From assembly GCA_033764315.1 (NCBI GenBank), contig JANRJA010000071.1, forward strand, positions 1-11,122: 11,122 bases of DNA, in the 5' to 3' direction. Position 1 is the first letter of the stretch. Each line of letters starts with the position of its first letter. The notes below the pieces were generated by a model. It had not been told where the DNA came from and searched no databases. It was given only the letters and a program-made list of their open reading frames with translations. The stretch is from Oculatellaceae cyanobacterium bins.114 (GTDB lineage: Bacteria; Cyanobacteriota; Cyanobacteriia; Elainellales; Elainellaceae). Made by a program: the position numbers and the translations under genes. Shown here in pieces: positions 1,322 through 10,798 of the stretch.

Positions 1322-1627
1322 TTAGTCTCGTAGTGAGTCTTGGGGTATGGTCAGGTGCCCTGCTTGTTCAAGTGCTTTAATCTGGTTCAACAGGTCTGCT
1401 TGCCGTAATAGTCGCAACACGTACTGTGGTCGGCGATGAAAATCAGTTCCCCAGTTTTTAATGGTGCCAGCACTTAACCCTGTTGCTTCAGAGAGGACGT
1501 TGATGCAAACCTTTAGATAGCCCTTCCCTGGCTCGGCAGTCACCCAACGTTTGCAATAATCAGTAGGCTCCATTGGAATGTAGCGTAGCCGATCCAGTCG
1601 ATGGGAATAGGGTGATATTTCGGGCAT
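1322..1627 (-). CDS. Small cyanobacterial hypothetical protein, probable HTH-like DNA-binding protein (start 1627 or 1573; the track's 1720 start is probably too long)
   Basis: MEPTDYCKRWV...GYLKVCINVLSEATGLSAGTIKNWG: 'LSEATGLSxxTIxNW' is an HTH-like pattern. It resembles, from memory, small proteins seen next to cyanobacterial CopG-like genes. Confidence 0.7.
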   Translation of the reverse strand: MPEISPYSHRLDRLRYIPMEPTDYCKRWVTAEPGKGYLKVCINVLSEATGLSAGTIKNWGTDFHRRPQYVLRLLRQADLLNQIKALEQAGHLTIPQDSLRD

Positions 1628-1743
1628 CGATCCGGGAAGATTTCTCCAGTTGATTTGGGTTAATGAACGATCGCCTCTACCGCAAAACGATCCACTATCC
1701 AACTTGCTGCACCAAAACATTCCCTGAATTAGGCAGAGAAAAA

Positions 1744-2099: not shown

Positions 2100-2333
2100 A
2101 TGGCAAAGAAGGGGCATAAGAGCCGTAAAGGGGTTGGCGAATTTTATGATGAGGTCAAGGTAGACACTTTGCTGTCCTTAACACCAACAGCAAGAGAAAG
2201 CCTGGACCAGCAGGCTAAATCAATCGGTATCAGCCGCAGCGAAGTTGTAGAACGTCTTGCTCGTGGACTGATTGCGCCTCCCGGAACAGTGCCCTTATCT
2301 AAAGAGGAGAAACTTAGCCTGGGAAAATTCTGA
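2100..2333 (+). CDS. Ribbon-helix-helix (CopG-like) transcriptional regulator
   Basis: Basic N-terminal tail, a beta strand (TLLSLT), helix A (PTARESLDQQAKSIG) and helix B (ISRSEVVERLARG); typical cyanobacterial CopG/RHH_1 pattern. Confidence 0.85.
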   Translation: MAKKGHKSRKGVGEFYDEVKVDTLLSLTPTARESLDQQAKSIGISRSEVVERLARGLIAPPGTVPLSKEEKLSLGKF

Positions 2334-2503
2334 CGCAGGCGATCGCTCAAGCCGAAGCTGAATTGGCGGAATCAACTGAAGCAGGTTTATTGGAAGACCA
2401 ATCAGCAGAGGGCGATTCTCCTGCATCCCCCCTTAACGAGCGTGCCATTGGGTTACGGCGGCAAATCGAGCAATGGCAGCAGATCCTACAGAAGCTGGAA
2501 TAG
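2318..2503 (+). CDS. -1 frame extension of the RHH gene (58 codons after the slippery site; predicted 134-aa transframe product)
   Basis: The -1 frame opens after TAG 2315-2317 and reads GK-ILTQAIAQAEAELAESTEAGLLEDQSAEGDSPASPLNERAIGLRRQIEQWQQILQKLE, ending TAG TGA. It has no ATG or GTG. G_GGA_AAA is at 2321-2327. Confidence 0.6.
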   Translation, partial: PGKILTQAIAQAEAELAESTEAGLLEDQSAEGDSPASPLNERAIGLRRQIEQWQQILQKLE

Positions 2504-2522
2504 TGAATAGCTCAACTGATTC

Positions 2523-2546
2523 ACCTTATAGAGCCAGCTATAGGGT
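2523..2546 (+). terminator. Hairpin downstream of the RHH extension
   Basis: ACCTTATAG-agccag-CTATAGGGT (9-bp stem, one G-U); no U-tract. Confidence 0.3.
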
Positions 2547-3204: not shown

Positions 3205-4158
3205 TCACGAAGCAATCTTCCAATAATTGCGATGCCATTTTAAGGCATCAATTCTCGGTTGATACTCTAGTTGAGTTGGCATCAGGATTTGGTTTCCATG
3301 AAAGTCTCGGATTGACTTTGTAGCTATTGGAGTCTCTTCATAAAAGCGATCGTTAGGTACAACAATTCTGTAGCTGTCATCGATGCCAAACCAACCGTGG
3401 TCAAACGCCCAATGATGGTTTTTGCAGAGAGAAATACCATTATCAAAGCGATCGTCCCAAAATTCAGAAAACGGCTTGATGTGTGCGCCATCTACAATAT
3501 TCTGATTATCCTGGCTAATCACTTTTAGTTTACAGAAAACGCAACGCTGTTTGTAGAGAGAGACGACCACTCTTCTAAACGCTGCATTTCTGATAAATAT
3601 TTTCTCTTCATCCTTTAAATCTTCTATCTTATAAACTGCTCCCCCTTGTTCAGCCAGTTTACGCTGGATGTTTTCAAATTCGTCCACTTCATAGAGTTTT
3701 TGAAGCTGAATCTCTTGATGAGGAAACCATGTTTGAATTAAGATACTTGCAAATTGAAGTCGTGCGGTAGGAGATTGCAATAGCTCAAATAGGTTAGGAT
3801 CGGTATAAGCGTATCTCACCGCATTTCGCAGAACCGATAAGCTTGGTTTGATAGAGGAAAGGTTTCCTTCATAGCTCATATTAGGAGTCAAGTGCCAAAA
3901 TTTATCGCCTGTTAAATGAAAGAACGGAAGCGAAATATTTGACTGATGATGGGTTGTGACTAAATTAGACCAGTACTTTAAAAAGGTAGCAATTAGCTCT
4001 GGAGAAAGATAAACCTGGTTGCTTTCAATCTTTCTCTGTTCAATTAATTCTATAACCGCTAGCAAGAGGATTGGTTTGTGCGGAGCGTTCACTCCCCTAT
4101 TTCGGTTAACATTGAGCTTTGCAAATTTTTTAGCGTAGTAATTAAAGTCTTTTTTCAT
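3205..4158 (-). CDS. SBD-HNH endonuclease: putative phosphorothioated-DNA-binding type IV restriction enzyme
   Basis: N-terminal sulfur-binding-domain motifs APHKPILLL and LPFFHL. C-terminal HNH domain: RNAAFRR, CVFC, DGAHIKPFS, NGISLCKNHHWAFD. Confidence 0.9.
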   Translation of the reverse strand: MKKDFNYYAKKFAKLNVNRNRGVNAPHKPILLLAVIELIEQRKIESNQVYLSPELIATFLKYWSNLVTTHHQSNISLPFFHLTGDKFWHLTPNMSYEGNLSSIKPSLSVLRNAVRYAYTDPNLFELLQSPTARLQFASILIQTWFPHQEIQLQKLYEVDEFENIQRKLAEQGGAVYKIEDLKDEEKIFIRNAAFRRVVVSLYKQRCVFCKLKVISQDNQNIVDGAHIKPFSEFWDDRFDNGISLCKNHHWAFDHGWFGIDDSYRIVVPNDRFYEETPIATKSIRDFHGNQILMPTQLEYQPRIDALKWHRNYWKIAS

Positions 4159-5552: not shown

Positions 5553-5753
5553 ATGGGTATAAATAGTGTTTGATATCACTGTGTTAAGCCCTGCCTCCAA
5601 TCGACGAATCCGATCGCTTCACCCACAGATCAAGTTTGCTTTGAAGAAGCAGGGAATAGATTAGAAGATTGGTCAACAACCCAAGTAGAAGGGGTGACGG
5701 CAATTGATCGAGTAACGGGAGTTGCCTTGCGCCGTTTGAAATTGGGTGGCTAA
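5553..5753 (+). pseudogene. Possible small gene or remnant interrupted by an in-frame TGA
   Basis: GAGGT SD 6 nt before ATG 5553; MGINSV*YHCVKPCLQSTNPIASPTDQVCFEEAGNRLEDWSTTQVEGVTAIDRVTGVALRRLKLGG*. The final stop overlaps the cbiJ stop. Confidence 0.3.
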
Positions 5754-6511
5754 TCGTTCAATTCTAATACTCTCTTGAGCCAGCAGAGAGCACTCTCGAC
5801 ATCTGCAACTTGCTCACAACAGGGGACAGGTGGACGTTGCACCATCACCACAGGAATGCTTAACTCTCGTGCAGCAATAATCTTGGCATAGGTGGCATCA
5901 CCACCACTATTTTTACTAACGATCGCCCTTATCTCATACTGTTGTAATAGCGATCGCTCCTCGTCGAGTGAAAAAGGTCCCCGTTCTAATAACACTGTTC
6001 CAGGGGGGAGGGGTGCATGGGGTGAAGGTGGCTCAATCATTCGCATCAGAAACCAGAGATCTTGTAAATAGGCGTAGACATGGAGTTCTTGCCGACCCAC
6101 GGTGAGAAACACACGCTGAGCTAATGTGGGTAAAATCGCTGCTGCTGCGGCATGACTGTTTACTTCAATCCAGTGATTTGCTGATGCAGGTTTCCATGCA
6201 GGACGAAGCAGCATGACCTGGGGAATACCAACTGCGGTGGCAGCAGCAACGGCATTAAACGAAATTTGGGCGGCAAAGGGATGGGTCGCATCAATCAACA
6301 CATCAATGCTGTGTTGGCGCAGATACTCTGTGAGTCCTGCTATTCCTCCAAAGTTGCCAATTCGCGTTTTTTCAAACGATATCAGGGGTTGACGAGTCCG
6401 ACCTGCCAGTGAAGCAATCACCTCCATGCCTGATATTGCCGCTGCTTGTATGGCTAAATCGACCGCGTCACTCGTTCCACCGAGAATCAATACTCGCTTT
6501 TTTTTAGTCAT
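5750..6511 (-). CDS. cbiJ: Cobalt-precorrin-6A reductase CbiJ/CobK (alternative TTG start at 6523)
   Basis: ILGGTSDA, SLAGRT, IDATHPFAAQIS, LRPAW, FLTVGRQ, RGPF, SKNSGG...KIIAARELSIPVVMVQRP. Confidence 0.96.
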   Translation of the reverse strand: MTKKKRVLILGGTSDAVDLAIQAAAISGMEVIASLAGRTRQPLISFEKTRIGNFGGIAGLTEYLRQHSIDVLIDATHPFAAQISFNAVAAATAVGIPQVMLLRPAWKPASANHWIEVNSHAAAAAILPTLAQRVFLTVGRQELHVYAYLQDLWFLMRMIEPPSPHAPLPPGTVLLERGPFSLDEERSLLQQYEIRAIVSKNSGGDATYAKIIAARELSIPVVMVQRPPVPCCEQVADVESALCWLKRVLELND

Positions 6512-6851
6512 GTCCCTCAACACCCTACTTCTAACCAGGTATATAGCAATCCCAAATGGGTTGTGAGAGGCGCACCCTGCTCATCGCACAACTGATTTAG
6601 GGCAGGTATAGCAACTGTCGAGACGATTGAGATAGGGTTCATGAACGCTGATCCTTGCAACAGGGACGTTTTGCAAAACGCCTTAATGAAATTCATACCG
6701 TCGATCAGCACCGCCAAAAAGCTAAATCGGTAAGCTGAATTCGTTGTAGTTTAGTAAAGGCATGAAACCTCATGTCTGCCTGGGTTAGCCTAGCGTCATC
6801 TGTCCTACATTTAATTCTCCACTGCCCATTACCCGTTCCCTACTCTCTTTA

Positions 6852-7937
6852 ATGGCTCGTACTGGTTATACGCTTCCTGTCTTTGCAGTCGCTGCGGCTA
6901 AAGCAGCATTATTACATCTCCAAAATACTCTGCCTGATGATTTGCAGGTGGTCACGCTAGATTTATTGCCAAATGAAGCTACAATTCCCATTCAACAGGT
7001 CGCTCGATTAGAGCAAGATAGCGCATTGGCGATCGCCCTCAGTGATCCTGGTGACAACTTAGATCTGACCCGCAACACCCCCATTTGGGCATGGGTCAAG
7101 CTCCAACCCCGACAGTCAGACTCTTTGATTTTAGAGGCTGGGGAAGGCATTGGTAAAACTACAGCGGGTGATCCGGCGATCTATCGCTATGCCCGTCGAT
7201 TGTTTGAGGCAAATTTGCTGCCGTTGATCTCTCCTGACCAAACGGTCACCGTGTCTATCATCATGCCAGAAGGTCGGCAACTGGCTCAACGAACCTCTAA
7301 TGAAGCATTTGGAGTGTTGGAAGGGCTATCGCTGTTGGGGACTAGCGGCATTTCTCAACCCCTTTCAGCCGAAGATCATTTAGAGGATTTGCGTCAAATT
7401 TTGCAAACCAAGGTACGATCGCACTCTCACTTAGTCTTTTGCATTGGGAGTCATGGCATGCATATTGCTCAACAGATGGGTGTGCCAGAAACGGCGATCG
7501 TGCAAACAGGCAACTGGATCGGGGCGTTGTTGATCGAGGCTGGGTTGCGGGGAGCAAAATCAGTTTTGTTGTTGGGATATCAGGGCAAATTAGTGAAACT
7601 AGCCGGAAATATTTTTAATACTTCCAGTCATCTGGCTGACGCTAAGTTAGAAATCCTCGCGGCAGCAGTGGTTAGATCGGGGGGCAGCTTGTCAGTTGTG
7701 GAGACTGTTTTGGCCGTAAAAACTGCCGATGAGGCTTATAAAGCCTTGGTAGAGTTGAATGTGGCGGATGCCGTTTTTGCGGCATTAGCCACAACGATTT
7801 CCCAAAAAGCACAAGCTTATGTCAAGAAGTATGGCAATGTTGATCTCACTGTGGGAACGACGTTGTTTGATCGACAGGGGCACACGATTGGGCAAGATGC
7901 GATCGCCACTCGCTTAATACAAGCTTGGCAGTGTTAA
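6852..7937 (+). CDS. cbiD: Cobalt-precorrin-5B (C1)-methyltransferase CbiD
   Basis: RTGYTLPVFAVAAAKAA, SDPGDNLDLT, GEGIG, RTSNEAFGVLEGLSLLGTSG, GNWIG, GKLVKLAGNIFNT. Confidence 0.97.
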   Translation: MARTGYTLPVFAVAAAKAALLHLQNTLPDDLQVVTLDLLPNEATIPIQQVARLEQDSALAIALSDPGDNLDLTRNTPIWAWVKLQPRQSDSLILEAGEGIGKTTAGDPAIYRYARRLFEANLLPLISPDQTVTVSIIMPEGRQLAQRTSNEAFGVLEGLSLLGTSGISQPLSAEDHLEDLRQILQTKVRSHSHLVFCIGSHGMHIAQQMGVPETAIVQTGNWIGALLIEAGLRGAKSVLLLGYQGKLVKLAGNIFNTSSHLADAKLEILAAAVVRSGGSLSVVETVLAVKTADEAYKALVELNVADAVFAALATTISQKAQAYVKKYGNVDLTVGTTLFDRQGHTIGQDAIATRLIQAWQC

Positions 7938-8225: not shown

Positions 8226-9359
8226 TTACCCATTTAATTTGCTGTAAGTAAACCGAGTAAAGTTGGCTTCGTTGAGACTGTTCCAGGCATAAACGCGATC
8301 GCGAAACTCTCTCCATCCGGTATAAATTGCCTTGAATTCAGTATCTTTTGCTGCAAATTCGTCATATAACGCAAAAGCAGCTTGTTCCGCTGCATTCAAA
8401 ATATCATCGCTGTAAGCACGCAACTCCACGCCACTGTCTACTAACCGTTGCAACGCTTCATTGTTACGAGTTTCATAGCGTGACAGCATCATGGTGTTGG
8501 CTTCATAGGTAGCGGCATAGATAGCGGCTTGATATTCCGCAGGTAAGTTGTTCCATTCATTCAGGTTAATTTGCAACTCTAAGGTTGCTCCAGGTTCCCA
8601 CCAACCGGGGTAGTAATAATACTTCGCAACCTCATTTAACCCCAACTTTTCATCATCATAGGGACCAACCCACTCCGCTGCATCGATCGCCCCTGTTTGA
8701 AGTGCCTGAAAAATCTCGCCACCAGGTAAGCTTTGCACGGTCACGCCTAATTTAGACATGACCTGTCCGCCCAATCCTGGAATTCTCATTTTTAATCCCT
8801 GTAAATCGCTCACAGAGGTAATCTCTTTGCGGAACCATCCACCCATTTGAGTGCCCGTGTTACCCGCTGGAAACTGAATCACATTAAACTTGCTGGCGTA
8901 AAGCTCTTGCAGTTGCTTTAATCCGCCCCCTTCATAAAGCCAAGCACTTTGCTGTTGTGCAGTCAGACCAAAGGGAACAGTAGTGCCAAAGGCGAGAGCC
9001 GGACTTTTGCCAAGGTAATAGTAGGAGGCAGTGTGTCCGCAGGGAACCGCCCCTTGAGACACCACATCCAAAATTTCGAGGGGAGGAGCCAACTCACCAG
9101 CAGCCCGTGGAGTGATCTTAAACTTGCCTCCGGTTAAACTGGCAAGGCGATCGACAAACACCTGAGCACCACCAAAAATGGTATCCAGAGCAACAGGCCA
9201 ACTAGTTGCCATTTCCCATTCAATCGTTGGCAGATCACTGGTGCTCGCAGCAGAGCCAGACGCTGTTTCAGAAGAGACTGTTGCCGAATTGCAGGCAACC
9301 AATCCCACGGTGCTGGTGGCTCCAAGGGCAAGGCTATTTAGGAGGACACGACGTTTCAT
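8226..9359 (-). CDS. dctP: TRAP transporter substrate-binding lipoprotein (DctP/TakP-like; probably monocarboxylate 2-oxoacids)
   Basis: Likely start MKRR (Tat-like) with lipobox [65 protein letters not shown]. The track's 9431 start is 24 codons too long. Confidence 0.95.
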
Positions 9360-9431
9360 AGCAGGTTTCTCAAAAGCAGTTGTTAGCCAAAACAAATACC
9401 GTTTTATACGGAATCCTCTGTGGAGTGTCAC

Positions 9432-9901: not shown

Positions 9902-10798
9902 TTATAGTGTGACTTTGCTACCCAAACTTCGTATGACACTGTGAAGCGCATTGGGCACTTTTTGAAACACTTTGGTTTGCCGATAAGTTGGTTTAAAGAG
10001 TGACGCTTGAGGATGAGCAATGAGACTCTCTGCTTGACCTAACAACAAAAAGCCAGTCGGCTGCAAGCTAAAGTGAAAGCGAACCAACGCTCGAACTTGA
10101 GTTTCTGAAGTGAGATACATCAGCAAGTTGCGGCAAACCAGCAGATCGATCTTAGGCATAGGGGCAGTTTGGATCAAGTCGTGAGGATGAAAGAGAATAG
10201 GGGGACAGTAATCGGGCCGCCAACGGTAGCCCTCTGGGGTGGGCTCAAAATATCGTCCCAACAGAACCGGAGGAATTTCCTCAGCCACTGCTGCTGAGTA
10301 ACAACCTTTGTGAGCTTGCCGAATAGCATCTTGGTCAACATCGGTGCCGTAGATGCGGACTCGTTGCAAAAATTGCTCTGGCCCCAACATCTCCGCCAGC
10401 AACATTGCCAGTGAATAGGCTTCTTCACCTGAGGCACAGCCTGCACTCCAGATGCGAATGGGTTCATTGGGGGCTTTGCTGGTAATAATGTGGGGAATAA
10501 CGTGATTGATTAAGTAATCCCAAACGGGGCGATCGCGAAAAAAACAGGTGAAGTTAACAAGAACAGTGTTTACCAGATGAGTTACTTCATCAGGCTGTTG
10601 TTGCAACTGATCAAAATAGTCTTGATAACACTCGACCCCAACCTGTTGCATCCGAAGTTGTGTTCGCCGCAACAAGCTAGGACGCTTATAACCCGTCAGG
10701 TCAATCTGGTGAACCTGCTTTAGATAAATAAGCAATTTCTCTAGTTGCTCTACTTTTAGCGACGGAGAGTGAGAGTGCGTACAGGTGAGATCAAGCAT
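9902..10798 (-). CDS. cheR: CheR-family protein-glutamate O-methyltransferase (stand-alone)
   Basis: YKRPSLLRR, TCFFRD, IRIWSAGCASGEEAYSLAM, IYGTDVD, HDL, DLLVCRNLLMY, GFLLLGQAESL. Confidence 0.93.
   Translation of the reverse strand: MLDLTCTHSHSPSLKVEQLEKLLIYLKQVHQIDLTGYKRPSLLRRTQLRMQQVGVECYQDYFDQLQQQPDEVTHLVNTVLVNFTCFFRDRPVWDYLINHVIPHIITSKAPNEPIRIWSAGCASGEEAYSLAMLLAEMLGPEQFLQRVRIYGTDVDQDAIRQAHKGCYSAAVAEEIPPVLLGRYFEPTPEGYRWRPDYCPPILFHPHDLIQTAPMPKIDLLVCRNLLMYLTSETQVRALVRFHFSLQPTGFLLLGQAESLIAHPQASLFKPTYRQTKVFQKVPNALHSVIRSLGSKVTL

Follow-up and report, generated by a model that had tools for sequence, protein, structure and literature searches.

A candidate programmed −1 ribosomal frameshift that may give short and long forms of a ribbon-helix-helix-like regulator in cyanobacteria

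Programmed −1 ribosomal frameshifting in Escherichia coli dnaX takes place at an A_AAA_AAG heptamer with a strong 3′ stem-loop and sets the ratio of the tau and gamma products. In IS1 and the IS3 family of insertion sequences (IS), the 0 frame encodes a regulator, and a −1 slip produces a fusion in which a further function is added to it. Outside IS elements, phage tail chaperones, dnaX, copA, and csoS2, we know of few bacterial genes with programmed −1 frameshifting. A precedent of another kind comes from phage P22, in which Arc is a ribbon-helix-helix (RHH) dimer and Mnt is an RHH protein whose C-terminal coiled coil serves for tetramerisation and so joins two dimers bound at operators. Here we describe a locus in the window (the whole stretch of DNA analyzed, a complete contig of 11,122 nt, JANRJA010000071.1, from Oculatellaceae cyanobacterium bins.114) where a small gene for an RHH-like protein ends next to a slippery heptamer and a second coding region continues in its −1 frame. 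We suggest that a programmed −1 ribosomal frameshift of the dnaX/IS kind makes both a short and a long protein from one mRNA, a reading to which we give a probability of about 80%.

The available text of two earlier papers bears on such a mechanism, stating that IS elements use frameshifting (PMC5009743) and that a Shine-Dalgarno (SD)-like element 5′ of a slippery motif is a recognized prokaryotic stimulator, 3′ structures not being obligatory in bacterial frameshifting (PMC4066793). Like dnaX, the window gene has a tandem-slippery heptamer with an internal SD-like stimulator about 10 nt upstream and would give two products, and the A_AAA_AAG heptamer of dnaX itself is present in three of its relatives. 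It differs from dnaX in belonging to an unrelated gene family, in that no counterpart of the strong 3′ stem-loop was found, and in that the shifted product, shorter in dnaX, would be longer here. The IS1 InsA/InsAB′ and IS911 OrfA/OrfAB pairs are similar in that a small DNA-binding 0-frame regulator is extended into a longer fusion by a −1 slip near its 3′ end, and in the setting of mobile elements; however, the part added here would be a helical hairpin of about 58 amino acids rather than a transposase catalytic domain, and the gene encodes no transposase. P22 offers an analogy of function, in which the short isoform would behave like Arc and the long isoform like Mnt at two palindromes 46 bp apart, although neither sequence nor fold comparison detected a match to Mnt, and Mnt and Arc are separate genes whereas a single gene is present here.

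A further comparison is with CvkR, Arc_1, and Arc_2, which the available text of PMC9938897 describes as small DNA-binding repressors of cyanobacterial type V-K CRISPR-associated transposons (CASTs), some of them RHH proteins of 53 to 72 amino acids. In both cases small DNA-binding proteins lie beside the CRISPR effector genes of Tn7-like elements, which here is true of the relatives with the AAAAAAG heptamer, in type I-B elements. Unlike those repressors, for which the same text mentions no frameshift, the window copy does not adjoin CAST genes. Coopted regulators are named only for type I-F3 and V-K systems in the available text of a 2024 review (PMC11406308). The sequence-only reading of this locus had known of no prior description for cyanobacterial CopG-like regulators, and our literature search, over available texts that include PMC3711429 and PMC9881144, likewise gave none and turned up no frameshifted RHH regulator from cyanobacteria or from type I-B CASTs; the supplementary cluster lists of two genome-wide frameshift screens (PMC4066793 and, for GeneTack, PMC3711429) may include the family. 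The mechanism thus appears to be of a known kind, and the gene family and setting appear to be new. If the reading is correct, programmed frameshifting would gain a new functional class, that of a transcription regulator on which slippage places a tail for oligomerisation or partner binding.

The short-isoform open reading frame (ORF) occupies positions 2100 to 2333 of the plus strand and encodes an RHH-like DNA-binding protein of 77 amino acids ending ...LSLGKF, its last codons being CTG GGA AAA TTC TGA, with the TGA at 2331-2333. The heptamer G_GGA_AAA (2321-2327, plus strand) stands in the X_XXY_YYZ phase of the 0 frame, inside the short interval (2318-2330) in which both frames are open, and the internal SD-like GAGGAG, a candidate upstream frameshift stimulator, lies 11 nt 5′ of it at 2304-2309 (plus strand). 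The −1 frame opens past a TAG at 2315-2317 and runs for 58 codons beyond the Lys codon (2327-2503, plus strand), closing with a TAG at 2501-2503 and then a TGA at 2504-2506. The −1 continuation begins ILTQAIAQAEAEL..., passes through an acidic linker, and ends ...RRQIEQWQQILQKLE, and is predicted to form the two-helix C-terminal domain of a long isoform of 134 amino acids; the only possible start codons in it are TTG 2363 and TTG 2390. On re-examination, the sequence-only reading proved right about the ORF, the heptamer, the spacing of GAGGAG, and the two-frame overlap, about a 58-codon −1 frame free of ATG and GTG that ends in TAG and then TGA, and about isoform sizes of 77 and 134 amino acids, which agree with these coordinates.

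In the mechanism that we propose, the majority of ribosomes would stop at 2333 and release the 77-amino-acid protein. In a minority, the P-site tRNA-Gly (on GGA) and the A-site tRNA-Lys (on AAA) would slip one base back at the heptamer and find perfect pairing again, with GGG and AAA, respectively. The slip would be assisted by GAGGAG through base pairing with the 16S rRNA tail, and the 0-frame stop one codon downstream may add to it. Ribosomes that had slipped would go on to add the 58 −1 codons, giving the 134-amino-acid protein, in which the extension would complete a helix begun before the shift site and contribute a second one, so forming an antiparallel hairpin. The hairpin would let RHH dimers associate with each other or bind a partner, and the ratio of long to short protein may tune binding to the two palindromes. 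What the sequences show is the signals, their conservation in varied forms, purifying selection acting on the −1 frame, and in-frame fused relatives; the slippage itself and its rate are what we infer. Genes for tRNA-Gly(UCC) and tRNA-Lys(UUU) are present in the assembly; a search of the assembly for the pattern of the 16S rRNA 3′ tail did not find it.

Relatives were collected in several ways. A protein search with the 77-amino-acid sequence gave 14 homologs among 20 candidates, 10 of the 14 being exactly 77 amino acids long. The C-terminal pattern L-G-(K/N)-x-stop is kept in 11 of the 14, at identities down to 61%, and thus the stop is positioned one codon past a conserved Gly-Lys or Gly-Asn; the nucleotide-level comparison of junctions leaves out the L-G-N homologs P0009, P0011, and P0012. 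Locus searches found matches in 21 of 57 genomes at the level of the order and in 13 of 401 genomes of a phylum sample, a related-locus search added four loci from genome contigs and one from metagenome contigs, and two profile searches with the −1 frame domain found matches in 14 and 28 of 401 genomes. The domain matches, when made nonredundant, numbered 45: 15 in the −1 frame of an adjacent RHH ORF of the window family, 5 in the +1 frame of such an ORF, 1 in frame with it, and 24 without an adjoining RHH. Ten of these 24 were inspected; five stood in the −1 frame and four in the +1 frame of a second small DNA-binding family, and the tenth, L064, had a different upstream ORF. The other 14, which lie outside our frame counts, are mostly fragments carrying the last helix, plus one duplicate row. 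The −1 set thus comprises 20 loci, 15 of the window family and 5 of the second, from about 14 lineages. All that the databases list is a “hypothetical protein” of 77 amino acids or a stray downstream ORF, and the long product is missed.

The sequence-only reading had asked whether a slippery heptamer precedes the stop in homologs, and on checking we found a perfect in-phase heptamer in 16 of the 20 −1 loci (GGGAAAA in seven, GGGAAAG in four, AAAAAAG in three, and GGGGGGA in two). The remaining four carry GGGGGAA, in which only the in-phase tetramer G_GGG is able to slip. An SD-like motif stands 10 to 13 nt 5′ of the site in 14 of the 15 RHH-family −1 loci, and the 0-frame stop follows one codon past the heptamer in 11 of the 20. 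Every L/M-G-K junction is spelled ...G GGA AAR; across the source genome, GGA accounts for 24% of Gly codons, CTG and TTG together for 50% of Leu codons, and GAG for 43% of Glu codons. Between L018 and L028, the 42 nt around the site are identical, and the RHH part differs at 42 sites. In these alignments, conservation of the heptamer and the SD-like motif extends to synonymous sites. A different kind of copy is seen in L007/L035, within the first 343 nt of an Oculatella sp. LEGE 06141 contig: this ortholog is 97 to 99% identical up to residue 72-73, then reads ...LRAC and stops, has neither heptamer nor C-terminal domain, ends 125 nt from the contig end, and resembles a copy that was rearranged or interrupted.

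Selection on the −1 frame was assessed from the ratio of nonsynonymous to synonymous substitution rates (dN/dS), in alignments that were guided by the −1 frame protein, which favors that frame somewhat. A low ratio was the check named by the sequence-only reading, and six of seven pairs gave values of 0.07 to 0.31: 0.28 for L001-L008 and 0.10 for L008-L038, with ratios of about 1 in the other frames for both pairs; 0.27 for L040-L041 and 0.31 for L040-L057; and 0.07 for L018-L028 and 0.15 for L067-L049. The seventh pair, L041-L057, gave the highest ratio, 0.65, and in two pairs dS was saturated. Across pairs, the other two frames gave ratios of about 0.5 to 7. By this measure, the −1 frame is protein-coding and under purifying selection. 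The RHH frame has a dN/dS of 0.10 in L018/L028. In L018, L028, and L067, the −1 frame is open across the whole RHH gene, and we considered an overlapping gene there and rejected it, its dN/dS being 2.6; only about 2.7 stops would be expected in that frame because few codons end in T.

Some relatives carry both parts in one frame. Profile searching across 1.84 billion representative proteins gave 42 matches, and the RHH part and the domain are joined in P0024 (119 amino acids) and in the fragments P0029, P0036, and P0040, as they also are in the genomic locus L083 (117 amino acids). P0024 has 46% identity to the window RHH (E = 2e-15), and its residues 73-117 have 43% identity to the window −1 peptide (E = 1e-8), with the parts in the same order. 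This makes the joined protein a natural structural unit. The junction of L083 has neither heptamer nor SD, so the signals are present only where a shift is required. According to the sequence-only reading, in-frame homologs would have marked the locus as a strain-specific indel or error; five distant ones do exist, yet they refute nothing, since all close orthologs and many distant homologs keep the −1 arrangement. In an AlphaFold model of P0024 (mean predicted local distance difference test score [pLDDT] of 72.9), the junction falls inside a helix formed by residues 63-85, which is paired with a helix formed by residues 98-118, and the domain is a helical hairpin with block-mean pLDDT values of 75 to 92. 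Foldseek gave no match of this model in the PDB at E ≤ 0.001, and in a wide VIA-align search, residues 59-119 matched generic antiparallel helical hairpins, the best at Z = 8.1, which is within the noise for helical models. As modeled, the C-terminal domain is a generic antiparallel helical hairpin without a specific structural relative, and it has no match in Pfam, NCBIfam, or PADLOC. The comparative signal looks unusually clean at the sequence level: the four heptamers are interchangeable, the SD-like motif is conserved, and in-frame relatives exist.

Could the downstream region instead be translated as a separate protein? The C-terminal domain would then arise by reinitiation or translational coupling at the non-AUG codon CTG 2330-2332, within CTGA, and GAGGAG would be its ribosome-binding site. 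The stop codon and a Leu codon of the −1 frame do overlap as CTGA in L001, L040, and L057 and as TTGA in L008; in relatives with the +1 arrangement, a GTG or TTG stands right at the junction and is preceded by GGGAGG at about 12 nt; the downstream part has been called as a gene by itself (P0016, P0017, P0019, and P0041); and stand-alone proteins carry the domain behind another N terminus (P0026, P0027, P0044, and P0046). However, L038 has CTA and L041 has TTA as the overlapping codon, neither of them a start codon, and ATG, GTG, and TTG are all absent from the neighborhood of the junction in 14 of the 20 −1 loci. GAGGAG lies 17 to 20 nt from the ATT/CTG, too distant for initiation and suited to −1 stimulation. 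Separate translation has no need of in-phase tandem-slippery heptamers of four types, yet 16 of the 20 loci carry one, and it sits poorly with the in-frame fusions and with a junction that lies within a continuous helix in the P0024 model. An independent start at TTG 2363, which the sequence-only reading had named as a way for its proposal to fail, found no support either: that position is CTA in L008 and CTG in L038, and the conserved domain begins upstream of it, at the heptamer. We therefore regard two separately translated proteins as improbable.

A second way to join the frames would be transcriptional slippage, in which RNA polymerase adds a base within an A4, A6, or G6 run in some of the mRNAs. 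Every site does contain a short run of A or G, and relatives use both the −1 and the +1 arrangement at A runs, which insertion or deletion of one A could serve. Efficient transcriptional slippage requires about 7 to 9 identical bases, however, and the runs here are short, being G3A4 for the window site and G3A3 for GGGAAAG loci. Transcription has no use for a strict X_XXY_YYZ phase or for an SD-like element at 10 to 13 nt, both of which are ribosomal features, and the single RNA-library contig that crosses the site is free of indels, although contigs drop rare variants. We think it very unlikely that the polymerase is responsible. It seems less likely still that there is no recoding and that only the short RHH is made, the −1 frame reflecting a fixed frameshift mutation, an assembly error, or phase variation at the level of DNA. 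An indel could have split an ancestral fusion, given that in-frame relatives exist; P0018 resembles a copy with an earlier, ordinary frameshift; and the 3′ part is lost in L007/L035. For phase variation, a G3A4 tract is too short. The same −1 arrangement recurs in about 14 lineages and in contigs of four further sequencing runs, purifying selection on the −1 frame is not expected of a dead remnant, and the heptamer and SD-like motif are kept at synonymous sites. The contigs just mentioned come from four runs in four studies, one of them an RNA library; they are 95 to 99% alike and span 2100-2528. They have zero indels across 2076-2528, a result to be read with the reservations that no run contains the exact sequence of the window (best share of words, 0.35) and that contigs cannot show rare variants. 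Because the −1 arrangement with its heptamer is also found in close orthologs and in many distant homologs, it is not specific to this strain, and the sequence-only reading's concern about a local indel or sequencing error was not borne out.

Several observations weigh against programmed −1 frameshifting or narrow its reach. The SD-like motif is missing from all five second-family −1 loci and from L088. A TTG or ATG stands a few codons from the junction in 5 of the 20 −1 loci, and it is a CTG that overlaps the TGA stop in L001, L040, and L057. Folding and covariation analyses found no conserved 3′ stem-loop or pseudoknot: single-sequence 3′ folds gave z scores of +0.89 to −1.82 against shuffles, none of which stands out, the consensus fold of the window subgroup has −7.4 kcal/mol and 0 covarying pairs, and the AAAAAAG subgroup has a weak 8-bp hairpin with 1 covarying pair in three sequences. 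The sequence-only reading had failed to see a strong 3′ stimulatory stem, and these unconvincing folds agree with it. The same C-terminal domain is found in the +1 arrangement in nine loci (L058-L062, from five species of one genus, and L077, L079, L094, and L082), with the conserved junction CCAAAAGT (0 frame xCC AAA AGT) and domain-frame dN/dS values of 0.04 to 0.43, indicating purifying selection. In L082, the +1 frame lacks a start codon near the junction, whereas a GTG or TTG is present at that place in others. These loci may use either a +1 shift on AAA_A or separate initiation, and some relatives could thus express the domain on its own. Finally, the pattern of the site is no more than chance would give in a single genome. 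Among the 19,957 stop-to-stop ORFs of at least 70 codons in the source genome, an in-phase heptamer falls within the last five codons of 421; in 67 of the 421, the −1 frame also stays open for 50 codons or more, and 5 of the 67, the window site among them, also have an upstream SD-like 4-mer. The case for −1 frameshifting thus rests on conservation across relatives, which, going by the sequences compared, is far beyond chance.

The genomic settings of the family vary, with relatives in mobile and defense islands. In the closest ortholog, the gene is flanked on one side by a divergent row of five genes of unknown function and on the other by a tyrosine integrase. No Tns or Cas genes are present in the 11.1-kb contig or in the 20-kb context of the closest ortholog, and the window copy is not CAST associated. 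The A_AAA_AAG relatives L040/L074 (G423:C112), L041 (G087:C1), and L057 (G141:C1) are inside a type I-B CAST beside glmS, with the gene between divergent tniQ/tnsD and convergent cas5b-cas7b-cas8b-cas6. Lying as they do between the targeting and Cascade genes, these relatives are a candidate natural regulator of systems engineered for genome insertion. L018 is in an island beside glmS, and other relatives adjoin restriction-modification, ParA-like, DUF3854, or CHAT-TIR genes.

The second N-terminal family (L078, L086, L087, L093, and L085) consists of proteins of about 90 amino acids with the motif ...KTKAVRIPEAIAD..., which are followed by the same C-terminal domain through a −1 change of frame. 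Their shift sites are G_GGG_GAA, G_GGA_AAA, or G_GGA_AAG, and the 0-frame stop lies 10 codons downstream. It is conceivable, although we hold it only tentatively and think it rather less likely than not to be right, that the shift site is a reusable recoding joint by which a hairpin module of about 55 amino acids is placed on at least two DNA-binding domains, with the rate of slippage switching the activity of the element. The change of frame always falls at the same residue, as −1 in about 14 lineages and as +1 in 9 loci. If this were so, the ratio of the short (dimer) to the long (bridging or partner-binding) form would be a translational layer of control for CASTs, so far undescribed. Short frames limited to the final helix of the domain (...QQLQQQIEAWQALLEKLGGNE), in some cases two or three of them consecutively, were seen in L084, L089, L063, L069, L070, L091, and L092, and could be remnants or the end of a repeated element.

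Membership of the 77-amino-acid protein in the RHH family is sub-threshold by sequence. The window protein matches Pfam RHH_1 at E = 0.021 and 15.2 bits, under the curated cutoff of 20.5, and P0024 matches it at E = 0.0022 and 18.3 bits. The distant homologs P0013 and P0015 have a precomputed PF01402 assignment. In a profile search of the PDB, the RHH antitoxin MazE6 came up only at E = 0.28, and nothing fell below E = 0.1; neighbors in the Atlas are named RHH/CopG with a score of 0.92, which we take as a lead only. The monomer model of P0024 has helices at 32-41 and 46-54 and no strand, most of residues 1-27 having pLDDT values below 50. P0013 and P0014 carry an N-terminal Cys-rich, zinc-ribbon-like extension of about 60 amino acids and are without the L-G-K end and the C-terminal domain.

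Two palindromes of the AGGTGG-N6-CCACCT type lie 26 to 89 nt 5′ of the ATG, 46 bp apart, a spacing that is kept in L005, L006, and L008. One is the 18-bp palindrome AGGTGGCATATACCACCT at 2011-2028, the core of which is unique in the genome, and the other is the 18-bp near-palindrome AGGTGGCATATGTCACCT at 2057-2074, 26 nt 5′ of the ATG. Both are operator-like and are likely operators. Being conserved upstream of the gene, they fit a DNA-binding, autoregulated repressor of a divergent gene row. The conserved divergent neighbor (1322-1720, minus strand) encodes 132 amino acids without a family match and, in the closest relatives, heads a conserved row of genes on the minus strand; the divergent neighbors have no match in Pfam, NCBIfam, or PADLOC. 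A type II antitoxin was considered and rejected: there is no conserved co-oriented neighbor and no adjoining toxin family, and NCBIfam antitoxin scores are far under their cutoffs.

About 20 nt 3′ of the −1 stop, the minimum-energy fold contains a hairpin with an 8-bp stem (2523-2546, plus strand). The hairpin that the sequence-only reading had placed after the stop is therefore present as a stem in that fold, but it is modest (z = −1.66, with 9 of 200 shuffles folding equally well), and a terminator scan made no plus-strand call there. Homology to the related contigs stops at 2528, where three of the four runs have loose ends. Farther to the right, 3205-4158 (minus strand) encodes a 317-amino-acid HNH endonuclease (Pfam HNH_2, E = 1.6e-11) that resembles restriction enzymes binding phosphorothioated DNA (NCBIfam E = 1e-36, below the cutoff). 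The largest ORFs in the right half of the window, at 5750-6523 (minus strand), 6852-7937 (plus strand), 8226-9431 (minus strand), and 9902-10798 (minus strand), encode 257, 361, 401, and 298 amino acids, respectively, and by eye we take them to be ordinary chromosomal genes (cobalamin-pathway enzymes, a transporter binding protein, and a methyltransferase).

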